This document shows positions 25,366 through 48,392 of a DNA stretch of 64,000 nt, in pieces. The stretch comes from Eledone cirrhosa. Taxonomy: Eukaryota. Position 1 is the stretch's first letter. Each line of letters begins with the position of its first letter. The notes beneath the pieces were generated by a model that made no database searches, had not been told where the DNA came from, and saw only the letters and a program-made list of their open reading frames with translations. Both the position numbers and the translations under genes were made by a program. The DNA lies in contig OZ024753.1 in NCBI GenBank assembly GCA_964016885.1, forward strand, positions 33,480,001 through 33,544,000. The letters run 5' to 3'.

Positions 25366-25745
25366 ATATTAATTCAAATATTAACAAAATAGATATTCTT
25401 GTGATCAATTAAATTTTATTATACATATTTCAGAGGTACTTGAATCAAGTTCAACAGTATGTCCTCATCAAATAAAATAAAATGATACATGACATATCCT
25501 GACATGTTAGATGTTTAAGATTTAATCAAGGTATTTTATTTTATCTGATGAGGACGTACTGTTGAACTTGATTCAAGTACCTCTGAAATATGTATAATAA
25601 AATTTAATTGATCACAAGAATATCTATTTTGTTAATATTTGAATTAATATCAATAACTCTGGAAAATATTTTTACTGTAGAGTGCTTCCAATCTACTGTA
25701 AAACTCATTCTTTGATGTATTCATTGAATCTGTTTAACTCTTTTA
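25366..25745. mobile_element. Head-to-head fold-back element with hammerhead ribozyme (Penelope-pLTR/retrozyme-like)
   Basis: ~118-bp inverted arms 25366-25483/25533-25650, right arm extended ~95 bp; (TA)n on both sides. Confidence 0.75.
25538..25603 (+). ncRNA. Type I hammerhead ribozyme motif
   Basis: Stem I ATTTTAT/ATAAAAT; CTGATGA 25545-25551; stem II GGA.GTAC..TTGAA/TTCAA-GTAC.TCT; GAAA 25585-25588; minimal stem III T-ATGT-A; AUA cleavage triplet ending at 25596. Confidence 0.78.
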
Positions 25746-25960
25746 TATATATATATATATAAACAGAGGAAGTACATTTAAAACTGTCCCTCTTCTTTAT
25801 AGTATATATATATATATATATATATAGTATTAAGGATACTATTTATGGTTATGCATATACAAAAACCTTTTGTAGTTATATATATTTTTACAAACCCTAA
25901 ATAGTGATAGTAAGATAAATAGCTCAATGTAAGAACATCAGTTGTTTTACAGAGCAGTTA

Positions 25961-26570
25961 TATATAAGTTATAAGAATCAAAGTTCTGTTCAAATCATTT
26001 ATATGCTTACAATTGTTTCCTCCGGAGCAATTTATTAATGAATGATCACATATATGACCTCCTTTTCAACCCAAGAGACATACAGATACATATGCAAATA
26101 TTGTTGCTTGGTGGGTCGACATCCATTATAACATTTAGCGTGGCAGTATACATTTAAAGATTACATTCATATCAAAAGAGGATAAAATTAAAAATTAATG
26201 TTAAAATACAACATGAAATTAATGCGATAGGATAGTCAGAAGCAGTTAGTGTGTGCAATAGTTACACGTGTGGCAAGCACGTGTGTCTTATTTATATAAT
26301 ACTATAGTGCGGCAGGGTGTTACATGTAATACAAGCACTTAAACGGGTAATCAAGAGTATTAAAGGGGTTGAACTGGTAATGTATCTTTTATATGAATGT
26401 TATAGAAGCTTGTGTGTAGAGAAATATTATAAATATTAAAAATATTAGTAATGTGTAGCAAGGCTTTGCTACACATTTCTAATATTTTAAATATTTATAA
26501 TATTTCTCTACACACAAGCTTCTATAACATTCATGATTTGAACAGAACTTTGATTCTTATAACTTGTATA
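25961..26570. mobile_element. Fold-back element: terminal ~38-bp IR plus internal ~70-bp-arm hairpin
   Basis: 25961-25998 is inverted at 26533-26570; near-perfect hairpin 26393-26534; right end abuts (TA)n. Confidence 0.7.
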
Positions 26571-26600
26571 TATATATATATATATATATATATATATATT

Positions 26601-26790
26601 GGCTGAAACATTCATAGGCTGACTAAGATACTCTCATGGAAAGACCAAATGAGGTTTATTTTTCAACATAATCCGTGGAATTGAAACAATGCAATTATTA
26701 ATAACAAGAGTTGAAATTAATGCCTGCAAGATCTCACAGCTCCTAGCATCATTCCTTCATAGTCAACCTATAAACTTTTCAGCTCACCTT
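26601..26790. mobile_element. mariner-derived MITE
   Basis: Imperfect TIRs GCTGAAACATTCATAGGCTGACTA / TAGTCAACCTATAAACTTTTCAGC; TA flanks. Confidence 0.7.
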
Positions 26791-27389
26791 ATATATATCA
26801 TCATCACCACCACCATTTAACATCTATTTTTCCAGCTTGCATGAGTTAGACAGGTTGTCACGTTATGAATAGGTATAGCCATGTTGCACCCTGTGTTACA
26901 GTCATTCTACCGGAGAATTATGTTAAAGGTACACATGTGTCTTTGGAGTACTCAGCCACTTACATGTAAATTGAAGGAGAAAAGCATTCAGCTGATTGAA
27001 ACCCGAATGTTCACCATTAGAACAAACAGTGGACCCATCAAATATACGGGAGTGTGTTTATGCATTTGTGTTTGTATATCTGTGTTTGATTACCAGTCTG
27101 TCTATGTGCATGTTTGTATATGGGTCTGTCAGTGTGCATGTGTGTGTTGGGGGATGTTTATGTGCATTCGTGTGTGTATAGTTGTGTATTTGTTTATGGT
27201 CAGTCTGTGTACATGTGTGAGTGTATGGTATAATTATGTATATGTGTCAAAGCTATCACATTTAGGTGTTCAGAGACAATTTATGTCTTTAACAGAAAAT
27301 AGGCAATTCCATCTATTTCTAAGAAGTTGCCATGAGTAGACATCTCAAGTAGTGCCAGTTGAAATGTATCCATCTTCTTAACACAAACC

Positions 27390-27660
27390 AGTAGAATCAT
27401 TAGAATATAGGATAAATAGCTTGTGGCATTTGTTCATTAAAGTATTTAGAAGGTGTCAGTAGAATGTGGGACAAAATAGTTTGTGTTTTTTGTTACAGAG
27501 TTGTTAGAATGTAGGACAAAATACCTTGTGGTATTTATTCCTTAGAGTGTCTTTAGGGGTGTTATTTGATTGTAGTGAAAAATATCTTGTGCTATTTCTT
27601 TATTAGGATGTCATTAGAATGTAGGACAAAATAATTAGTAGTACTTCATTAGAAATATTT
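27390..27660 (+). repeat. Degenerate tandem array of TAGAATGTAGGACAAAATA.CTTGTGG units
   Basis: About 5 units with irregular ~45-65 bp spacing. Confidence 0.65.
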
Positions 27661-45632: not shown

Positions 45633-45832
45633 NNNNNNNNNNNNNNNNNNNNNNNNNNNNNNNNNNNNNNNNNNNNNNNNNNNNNNNNNNNNNNNNNNNN
45701 NNNNNNNNNNNNNNNNNNNNNNNNNNNNNNNNNNNNNNNNNNNNNNNNNNNNNNNNNNNNNNNNNNNNNNNNNNNNNNNNNNNNNNNNNNNNNNNNNNNN
45801 NNNNNNNNNNNNNNNNNNNNNNNNNNNNNNNN
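45633..45832. other. Assembly gap (200 N)
   Basis: Run of n. Confidence 0.99.
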
Positions 45833-45978
45833 ACCAACACCCGGATATGTCTCCGCAAACAGTAATTCTCTTCTCGAATGGGCCATGGTGCCCAAATCCT
45901 GAATTGAAAGACTTCGCCAGGTGGTGCTATTAAGTTAGACATGGCCTGGGCCAATACTGGCCAAAACATTTCAAAGTT

Positions 45979-47600
45979 ATATATACATATATATATATAT
46001 ACATATACATATACATATATACATATATACATATACATATATACATATACATATATACATATACATATATACATATACATATATACATATACATATACAT
46101 ATATACATATATACATATGTATATACATATACATATATATATATATACATATATATATACATATATATATACATATATATATATATATATACATATATAT
46201 ATATATACATATATATATATATACATATACATATGTATATACATATACATATATATATATACATATATATATATATATATACATATATATATATACATAT
46301 ATATATACATATATATATATACATATATACATATATATATACATATATATATACATATATATATATACATATATATATACATATATATATACATATATAT
46401 ATACATATATATATACATATATATATACATATATATATACATATATATATACATATATATATACATATATATATACATATATATATACATATATATATAC
46501 ATATATATATACATATATATATACATATATATATACATATATATATACATATATATATACATATATATATACATATATATATACATATATATATACATAT
46601 ATATATATATATATATACATATATATATACATATATATATATACATATATACATACATATATATATACATATACATATATATATACATATACATATATAT
46701 ATACATATACATATATATATACATATACATATATATATACATATACATATACATATACATATATATATACATATACATATATATATATATACATACATAT
46801 ATATATATACATACAGATATATATATATACATATACATACAGATATATATATACATATACATACATATATATATACATATATATATATACATATATATAT
46901 ATACATATACATATACATACATATATATATACATATATATATATACATATATATATATACATATATATATACATATACATACATATATACATATACATAT
47001 ATATATACATATACATACATACATATATATATATACATACATATATATATACATATATATATACATATATATATACATATATATATATACATATATATAT
47101 ACATATATATATATACATATATATATATACATATATATATACATATATATATACATATATATATACATATATATATAAATATATATATACATATATATAT
47201 ATATATACATATACATATATATATATACATATACATATATATATATATATACATATATATACATAGATATATATATACATATACATATATATATATATAT
47301 ACATATATATACATAGATATATATATACATATATATACATAGATATATATATATACATATATATATATACATATACATACATATATATACATATACATAT
47401 ATATACATATATATATACATATATATACATATATATACATATACATACATATACATATATACATACATATACATATATATACATATACATATATACATAT
47501 ACATATATACATATACATATACACATATACATATATACATATACATATATACATATATATATACATATATATATATAAATATATATATATACATATATAT
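45979..47600. repeat. (TA)nCA microsatellite incl. homogeneous CATATATATATA 12-mers
   Basis: Direct inspection. Confidence 0.97.
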
Positions 47601-48050
47601 GTGAGGAGCGCGATGCTGCATGGTAGTGAGACATGGGCAGCAACCGCAGAGGATATGCGACGGCTGGAGAGAAATGAGGCAAGCATGCTCCGTTGGATGT
47701 GCAGTGTAAATGTGCGTGAACGACTCGGCATAAATGTGTTGAGAGAGAAACTGTGTCTGAGAGGGATAGAATGTAGTGTACGGGAGAGGAGACTGAGGTG
47801 GTATGGACATGTGATGCACATGGAGGATGACCGATGGGTGAAGAAGTGCCAGGAAATGCCAGTTGAAGGAAGACGTGGTAGAGGTAGACCACGAAAAACA
47901 TGGGCGGAGGTGGTGAGAACAGACCTCAGATCATTGAATCTCACGGTGGAGATGACGAGGGACCGTGACGAGTGGAGAGATGCTGTGCTGAATAAGACCC
48001 GTCCCACCCTTGCAAGCAGGGAAAAGCGGACGTAAAATGATGATGATGAT
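47601..48050 (+). mobile_element. 5'-truncated young RTE LINE (ORF2 C-terminus, open)
   Basis: [11 protein letters not shown]...[12 protein letters not shown]...RRLRWYGHV...[12 protein letters not shown]...EKRT* followed by (ATG)n; inserted in (TA)n. Confidence 0.92.
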
Positions 48051-48077
48051 ATATACATATATATATACATATATATA

Positions 48078-48392
48078 TAGGAGGTGAGTTTTATTGTAGT
48101 ACAATAAAGCAATGCAGATATCGGATAAGAAGCACTCTACAGTTTGTGGGACTGGAGTATGCATAATATAAGATCAAAAGATGGTTAAAGGAGTTCCATA
48201 TATTTTATTATGCGCATTTCAAAAACAAACATCATCAAGCAATAATATTTGTGTTTTCATCATATTTGTGTTATCATGTTCTCCTGTTTTATCTGATGAA
48301 AACACAAATATTATTGCTTGATGATGTTTGTTTTTGAAATGCGCATAATAAAATATATGGAACTCCTTTAACCATCTTTTGATCTTATATTA
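48078..48392. mobile_element. Centrally deleted, inverted copy of the 39500-40759 fold-back element
   Basis: 48078-48262 is the reverse complement of ~40575-40759; 48272-48392 matches ~40553-40674. Confidence 0.88.
48286..48354 (+). ncRNA. Type I hammerhead ribozyme motif
   Basis: Identical to 40567-40635. Confidence 0.8.

Follow-up and report, generated by a model that had tools for sequence, protein, structure and literature searches.

A 64-kb window of the 3.0-Gb genome assembly of the animal Eledone cirrhosa (contig OZ024753.1) contains four families of hammerhead ribozyme elements, here called A to D, embedded in (TA)n microsatellites. We found that the copies of each family end at one of two fixed 3′ points, short or long, and that a small RNA stem with a U-led bulge lies just downstream of both. 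This stem is very probably a real, conserved RNA signal. The reading that we favor, with a probability of roughly 0.6, is that it serves as a docking site that positions the element's reverse transcriptase (RT). Judged by their sequence motifs, A, B, and C almost certainly derive from autonomous Penelope-like elements (PLEs) of the Hydra clade, which code for RT and a GIY-YIG endonuclease (EN), and represent 5′-truncated or inverted ends of these; D is a retrozyme.

Relative to the predicted hammerhead cleavage site, the ends of A–C lie 43–51 nt (short) and 129–155 nt (long) downstream, with values of about 51 and 150 nt for A, and those of D lie about 81–85 and 191–192 nt downstream. An earlier note on this DNA had let the long arms end some 80–155 nt past the cut, a description that these values correct. 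Thirty copies of B comprised 13 short, 14 long, and 3 other ends; 30 copies of C comprised 15 short and 14 long ends and a single read-through. Both ends are used to a similar extent. We equate them with the PLE tail, for which PMC11167929 gives two internal start sites as the explanation. Inverted insertions combine these ends almost strictly: 43 of the 46 classifiable cases join a short to a long arm, 3 join two long arms, and none joins two short ones. The same pattern was found for inverted B and C insertions that had not been chosen by their ends (23 short+long, 1 long+long, and 0 short+short), for all 5 clear inverted pairs of D, and for all three inverted insertions of the window.

Templates that start at the hammerhead cut were considered and rejected: among 30 C copies selected with a probe from the 3′ side of the cut, none has its start at this position, 2 start 4 and 9 nt before it, and 28 start at least 53 nt before it. 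The templates of these copies cross the hammerhead site, which agrees with uncut RNA as the substrate in PMC11167929. Cleavage by the hammerhead probably requires a dimer and plays no necessary part in defining the ends. In B, the 5′ boundaries of 11 of 30 copies cluster 109–139 nt before the cut; in A, those of 15 of 29 copies do so at 99–122 nt. Overall, the boundaries of short stumps pile up 99–151 nt before the cut, a region that may correspond to the transcript start. The two arms of an A insertion differ by 3.2 as compared to 6.8 between insertions (18 of 41 pairs kept); for B, these values are 0.8 and 1.1. This likeness within an insertion fits a common template, and it fits gene conversion too.

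The stem was sought in read-through copies, on the template strand, beyond the last base that can pair with a TA primer. It occurs at all eight ends of A–D, 3–8 nt downstream of each end, and consists of 3–5 base pairs with U-A and C-G as inner pairs (UC paired with GA). A two-base, U-led bulge sits on the 3′ strand before GA, and then comes a variable inner stem-loop. Among distinct hammerhead-linked ends, 12 of 16 carry the stem (20 rows less 4 duplicates). It was also found at 5 of 9 hammerhead-linked ends outside the derivation set and at 6 of 20 other TA junctions, two of them directly before a PLE ATG, as compared to 8.7% of random positions. At 20 chosen sites, the pairs that are not imposed by the descriptor hold in 19 (G-C 8, A-U 7, and U-A 4) and 18 cases. 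Covariation is seen at the inner pairs, including G-U wobbles when the sense strand is read, and the outer pairs and the 3′ flank are conserved in sequence. In nearly all copies the long-end stem lies outside the inserted DNA.

As an independent set we used 77 Hydra-clade loci from marine metagenome contigs, 53 of which have a mappable start. With the strict descriptor, the stem was detected before the ATG in 24 of the 42 non-redundant loci with at least 90 nt upstream of this codon, as compared to 1 of 42 on the reverse strand and 10 of 480 windows in open reading frames (ORFs). Shuffled sequences gave a mean of 1.7 and a maximum of 5. This descriptor imposes U, GA, and UC; the best of 63 other letter combinations reached 7. 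A relaxed form was found in 28 of 30 non-redundant 150-nt segments after the hammerhead and was doubled in 20 of them, typically at a spacing of about 60–70 nt (9 and 1, respectively, on the reverse strand, and 6.0 and 0.64 in shuffles). At 6 of 7 mappable metagenome ends, the stem lies 4–10 nt downstream, after a TA match of 2–7 nt. The bulge follows a purine in 46 of 48 cases and reads UU in 36 of 48. By eye, we could recognize the stem in the published consensi of Hydra-1_Ajap (sea cucumber, twice), Hydra-2_Ajap, and Hydra-2_Amil (coral); one further published consensus was uninformative.

A purine and U bulge followed by G-C and A-U pairs is also the signature of TAR-type RNA, and the geometry of the stem fits an arginine-sandwich bulge. 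As described in PMC6189040, this sandwich involves A22, U23·A27-U38, G26, and G28-C37 in TAR, and A39, the U40-U41 bulge, and A43-U66 with the triple U40·A43-U66 in 7SK. Our stem shares with HIV-1 TAR and stem-loop 1 (SL1) of 7SK a purine, a U-led bulge, and then G, A, and G paired with C, U, and C; in these RNAs the bulged U can cap an A-U pair, and the 7SK bulge is a two-base UU. In the stem found here the loop closes the other end, so to speak a circular permutation, and the likeness is one of secondary structure alone.

The assignment of A, B, and C follows from the genes to which their longer copies lead. DNA similarity searches for B and C returned 0 and 3 matches (common words were skipped), and exact patterns were used for counting instead. 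Family B gave 1479 exact genome matches to a 34-mer. Its long copies run on through a 1.1-kb 3′ untranslated region (UTR) into an ORF, which in 58 of 59 scored copies is free of stop codons, with 98–100% identity; a complete copy encodes 800 amino acids from an ATG directly after the 5′ pseudo-long terminal repeat (pLTR) and tail. Family C, with 3683 exact matches to a 21-mer, has a unit length near 3.55 kb and reading frames of 746–794 amino acids. Over 259 nt, the C copy in the window matches the 5′ pLTR and tail of L225, a copy that carries an ORF, at 100% identity. For A, with 2365 first-look candidates in the genome, longer copies contain the same kind of RT-EN ORF, but this is broken in every copy examined.

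In B and C the RT is N-terminal and the GIY-YIG endonuclease C-terminal, and the broken A frames preserve this order. All three proteins contain RT motifs RWT/RWK/RWR and DKT, a CxCx5C linker, and a GIY-YIG core without CCHH that has CxxC and CxH around E and N. The elements also share a hammerhead in the pLTR, a tandem or inverted structure with tail, and the (TA)n target. Among relatives, W38 is conserved in 46 of 47, D123-K124 in 50 of 51, and T125 in 42 of 51. A Pfam search with the B protein found no family. The AlphaFold model has a pLDDT of 87 and finds telomerase reverse transcriptase (TERT) as its best PDB match; a homodimer prediction for B residues 1–480 scored 0.00. Two arginine patches, R35-x-R37-W38 and R506-x-R508-x-R510, are conserved in 51 relatives. 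Residues 586–654 of the B protein form an asparagine-rich, low-confidence insert between RT and EN; rotifer Penelopes carry N-rich inserts as well (PMC3846280).

Family D is of a different kind. It is a low-GC tandem repeat with a 457-nt period and one type I hammerhead per unit. The genome has 1790 candidates, from single units up to arrays in which more than 25 units follow one another at 99% identity. The head-to-tail joint was recovered in contigs of three out of four runs. A look-up of RNA sources listed none with D, a result that speaks neither for nor against its expression. The window copy comprises about 2.1 units; the third hammerhead is intact, the first is 5′-truncated, and the middle one is partly deleted. 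With a longest frame of 69 codons, D is by its sequence a non-coding tandem non-LTR retrozyme and the sole family to which the description non-coding and non-autonomous applies. A comparison of D and five metagenome loci with Rfam gave no relevant match. Family D has no pLTR sequence in common with any PLE examined, yet it has two stems, two ends, the TA target, and the short+long rule. These common features are structural, not phylogenetic, evidence of mobilization by PLEs. A second retrozyme (L243:3980-7240; G000:C1, about 125.785-125.788 Mb) has a 310-nt period and a compact canonical hammerhead, and stands head to head with a full-length B copy, with a short TA tract between them.

A (TA)5 run lies within 250 nt after the predicted cut in 28 of 30 genomic copies of B, 29 of 30 of C, 26 of 30 of D, and 27 of 29 of A, where the last figure is biased upward, as the A copies are the best BLAST matches to a query that reaches almost to the end. 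At random positions this frequency is 16.4% (5850 of 35,603), and the TA-repeat flanks described in the earlier note are thereby borne out. Target-site duplications were not discernible in the pairs inspected (0 of 14 for A, 1 of 5 for B, and 0 of 3 for C). At one locus (L062; G000:C1:158252500-158259500), an inverted D array lies between identical 37-nt flanks amid TA tracts, possibly a long target-site duplication.

How may the stem act? In the mechanism that we propose, the GIY-YIG endonuclease would nick (TA)n, which reads alike on both strands, and the free 3′ end would pair with a UA-rich RNA stretch of 2–8 nt immediately 5′ of the stem. An arginine would attach the protein to the U bulge, as it does for Tat on TAR. 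Two protomers on two stems would then prime from opposite DNA strands to give one short and one long arm, both copied from the same upstream RNA. Family D could be moved in trans by a PLE enzyme by way of its two stems, since it keeps both. A more far-reaching version, possible but in our view somewhat doubtful, extends to Hydra-clade PLEs of several animal phyla: a duplicated TAR-like arginine-sandwich bulge would start the telomerase-like RT, a protein dimer that occupies the two bulges of a single RNA, uncut or circular, would prime both (TA)n strands and build the inverted short+long insertion in one event, and retrozymes would parasitize this machinery with just two bulges and a hammerhead.

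Several observations weigh against the docking site and the mechanism built on it. The stem is missing at 4 of the 9 held-out hammerhead-linked ends, 3 of the 5 held-out matches in this genome are D relatives, and the strict form is missing in 18 of 42 metagenome 5′ regions. By eye, the stem is altered in Hydra-1_Crog (copepod) and was not seen in Hydra-1_Obim (octopus); the end stem of the 310-nt retrozyme is altered too. In RNAfold, the UC-GA pair is favored at no more than 5 of the 8 sites (0.97, 0.92, 0.91, 0.60, and 0.44); the short end of B scores 0.08, and other folds are preferred for the long end of A and the short end of C. In addition, 31 inverted pairs could not be classified by their ends, and DNA similarity and tblastn searches in 30 D-type loci found no autonomous partner of D. 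Short TA matches come easily in AT-rich RNA, and the anole element Poseidon starts in vitro without target homology (PMC11167929), meaning that the microhomology step is not general. Finally, a shape as simple as that of TAR could arise for another partner.

In a rival explanation, the stem is an RNA signal for transcript cutting or termination, with copying then beginning at genuine 3′ ends, or for a host TAR/7SK-type factor near the pLTR promoter. The stem is close to where the transcript is inferred to begin, its geometry is that of 7SK and TAR, which are bound by host HEXIM and viral Tat (PMC6189040), and read ends from RNA sequencing match the start sites in the anole element (PMC11167929). 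We consider this explanation rather unlikely: a processing or elongation signal leaves the different ends on the two arms of one insertion unexplained, a promoter role does not account for the fixed distance of 3–10 nt between stem and end, and PLE initiation in vitro is internal and occurs upstream of downstream RNA that is required (PMC11167929). Even less probable is that the motif acts as DNA, either as an endonuclease site or as a tail promoter, with the inverted arm made by fold-back self-priming or gene conversion. The Drosophila virilis tail has been reported to be needed for endonuclease recognition (cited in PMC11167929), self-priming has been proposed for inverted pLTRs (PMC3846280), the conserved outer pairs and 3′ flank would suit a DNA site, and conversion would also make the arms of one insertion alike, as seen for A in 18 pairs (3.2 vs 6.8). 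However, the inner pairs vary and yet stay paired, with G-U wobbles and a strong strand bias, the location of the long-end stem outside the inserted DNA of nearly all copies does not suit a DNA signal, and a fold-back copy would not give the other arm a different 3′ end.

The earlier note had viewed all four families as independent, non-coding, and non-autonomous elements that are moved in trans into (TA)n. The window copies themselves indeed contain no ORF, short stumps are common, and D fits this description. However, the 5′ truncations of A, B, and C form a continuum of lengths that reaches into RT-EN ORFs, and the window C copy is identical to the pLTR of a copy that has such an ORF. This view is refuted for A, B, and C and holds for D; as an account of all four families it is highly improbable. 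The kinship with PLEs and retrozymes, (TA)n targeting, and a dimer-type stem III, which the note had also proposed, stood up, and the search that it suggested for copies joined to RT plus GIY-YIG ORFs found these for A, B, and C. Its statement that the families have no similarity outside the ribozyme core did not survive: the bulged stem, which it had missed, is common to the families, and the A and B proteins are 56% identical.

Hammerheads and TA targeting alone have already been published, and the elements belong to known kinds (PMC8557442 and PMC7229834), a point that the earlier note had been unable to confirm. Hydra-clade PLEs with hammerheads and a preference for (TA)n were described in PMC8557442. 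Its supplement reports U·U-type bases in stem II of the hammerheads, palindromes in stem III, and an Octopus bimaculoides family. Families A, B, and C agree with this clade in the single RT-EN ORF with RW(K), DKT, and the CxCx5C linker; in the GIY-YIG domain without CCHH and with CxxC and CxH around E and N; in the pLTR hammerhead, whose stem III is palindromic and whose stem II has a U·U or another odd base; and in (TA)n insertion with an inverted 5′ copy and a tail at one end. Unlike the published elements, those studied here have longer units of about 3.5 kb with 3′ UTRs of 1–2 kb, an enlarged stem II of 33–88 nt, and thousands of copies. The tail at one end was noted qualitatively in PMC8557442 and PMC3846280; the accessible part of PMC8557442 describes neither a start-site stem nor a count of short+long pairing. 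In the main text of an octopus repeat survey, word counts found no mention of hammerheads or the Hydra clade. In the literature searched, which did not extend to subscription papers or Repbase/Dfam notes, we found no description of the duplicated stem at the start sites, of its presence in a retrozyme as well, or of the nearly strict short+long rule.

Metazoan non-LTR retrozymes (PMC7229834; bioRxiv 10.64898/2026.07.22.740005) resemble D in being tandem repeats with one hammerhead per unit and no ORF, and the same sources propose that they use PLE machinery. With 457 nt, the D unit is at the upper edge of the retrozyme range (150–450 bp). A further parallel is Poseidon of the green anole in vitro (PMC11167929), where two internal start sites define the tail, both DNA strands are cut and extended, the template is uncut RNA, and downstream RNA is needed. 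Poseidon differs in that it belongs to another clade and starts in an AC-rich stem-loop without target homology, and in that no binding motif is defined in the text available. The minimal hammerheads of PLE pLTRs (PMC4209133) have a large stem II, a short stem I, and a palindromic stem III for dimer cleavage, and form opposite-strand pairs 100–700 bp apart that are mostly truncated PLEs, as here. We see no essential difference from what is reported there; the hammerheads of this genome are ordinary.

Six motifs in the window have an intact type I core, three stems, and an NUH site, with CUGANGA cores at 25545 (+), 39600 (-), 40574 (+), 41972 (+), 43690 (+), and 48293 (+). Stem I measures 5–8 bp, stem II 33–88 nt, and stem III is a palindrome or nearly so. 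A descriptor scan (stem I of at least 5 bp) returned seven motifs in the 50,698 non-microsatellite bases of the window, as compared to a mean of 0.14 and a maximum of 2 in 100 dinucleotide shuffles. It recovered all six hammerheads of the earlier note at the places given there, and the odd stem II pairs (G-U, A-U, A·A, and U·U) were likewise as reported. The seventh motif (5969-6012; scan position 5975) is weak, with a poor stem II and no TA flank; it occurs once and is possibly due to chance or decay. Among the 150 Rfam matches listed of 562 for the window there was no hammerhead; all were microsatellite-driven microRNA matches. Twenty arbitrarily placed 10-kb stretches of the genome contain 15 motifs, or about one hammerhead per 13 kb, from which about 5 would be expected per 64 kb; hence, the cluster in the window is near the genome background. 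Stem III is self-complementary, with a sequence that differs widely between families, and the hammerheads are therefore probably dimer-dependent, as in PMC4209133. Dimer energies amount to -10 to -11 kcal/mol for B, C, and D, and to only -2 kcal/mol for A. Core positions in A copies are not better conserved than the flanks, as expected because copies decay after insertion.

The cited papers leave three questions open: by what means the RTs of PLEs, to which telomerase is most closely related, select start sites inside the RNA; why one end of an inverted PLE pair bears a tail; and in what way retrozymes make use of the enzyme. All three become testable by point mutants through a short RNA motif that occurs clade-wide, keeps a fixed distance to both ends, and is present in an otherwise dissimilar retrozyme. 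Dozens of natural ORFs without a break are available in family B. In genomes rich in such repeats, the motif also makes it simple to locate the ends of elements and their non-autonomous partners. The features of the window are collected in Table 1.

Table 1. Coordinates of the elements in the window; A and B are arranged as inverted pairs and D as a direct repeat (extent: A, 25366-25743; B, 39500-40761 and 48080-48390; C, 41966-42233; D, 42858-43845)
Feature	Position	Strand	Remarks
A, inverted arm	25366..25483	-	short end 51 nt after predicted cut; first core base mutated (C3 to U)
A, direct arm: pLTR end of Hydra-clade PLE and tail	25533..25743	+	hammerhead 25538-25603, predicted cut after 25596; long end
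Bulged stem directly 3′ of A short-end site	25656..25683	+	
B, inverted arm	39500..39882	-	hammerhead CUGA at 39600, predicted cut after 39546; short end
B, direct arm: 3′ UTR plus pLTR of autonomous Hydra-clade PLE	40297..40761	+	hammerhead 40566-40636, predicted cut after 40628; long end
Bulged stem directly 3′ of B short-end site	40679..40703	+	
C, stump and tail	41966..42233	+	hammerhead 41967-42083, predicted cut after 42078; long end
Bulged stem directly 3′ of C short-end site	42128..42166	+	
D, tandem 457-nt units	42858..43845	+	intact hammerhead 43685-43765, predicted cut after 43760; short end
Bulged stem directly 3′ of D short-end site	42975..43005	+	
Bulged stem directly 3′ of D long-end site	43084..43101	+	
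B stump, inverted arm	48080..48265	-	long end; 5′ core of hammerhead missing
B stump, direct arm	48266..48390	+	hammerhead 48285-48355, predicted cut after 48347; short end

Further TA-associated elements were noted in the window and elsewhere in the genome. Positions 25827-26600, which share the TA tract beside A, contain the inverted end of a fifth PLE family with a full ORF in L111; the long end of this family has the bulged stem too, directly ahead of the ATG in L111. A very abundant family is represented by short, inverted copies between TA repeats at 1010-1225, 17877-17972, and 60240-60736. This family accounts for the most frequent TA junction in the loci examined. Its short end carries the bulged stem, and a relative continues into a PLE ORF (L028); no hammerhead was found upstream. 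Another TA-targeting family (L011, L143, and L200; junction clusters 11 and 30) carries a different minimal hammerhead with a non-palindromic stem III and an end hairpin without U bulge, and perhaps belongs to another PLE clade. Finally, positions 47560-48050 and 49269-51678 contain fragments of RTE-type long interspersed nuclear elements with (ATG)n tails that adjoin TA tracts, and related short ends occur across the window.

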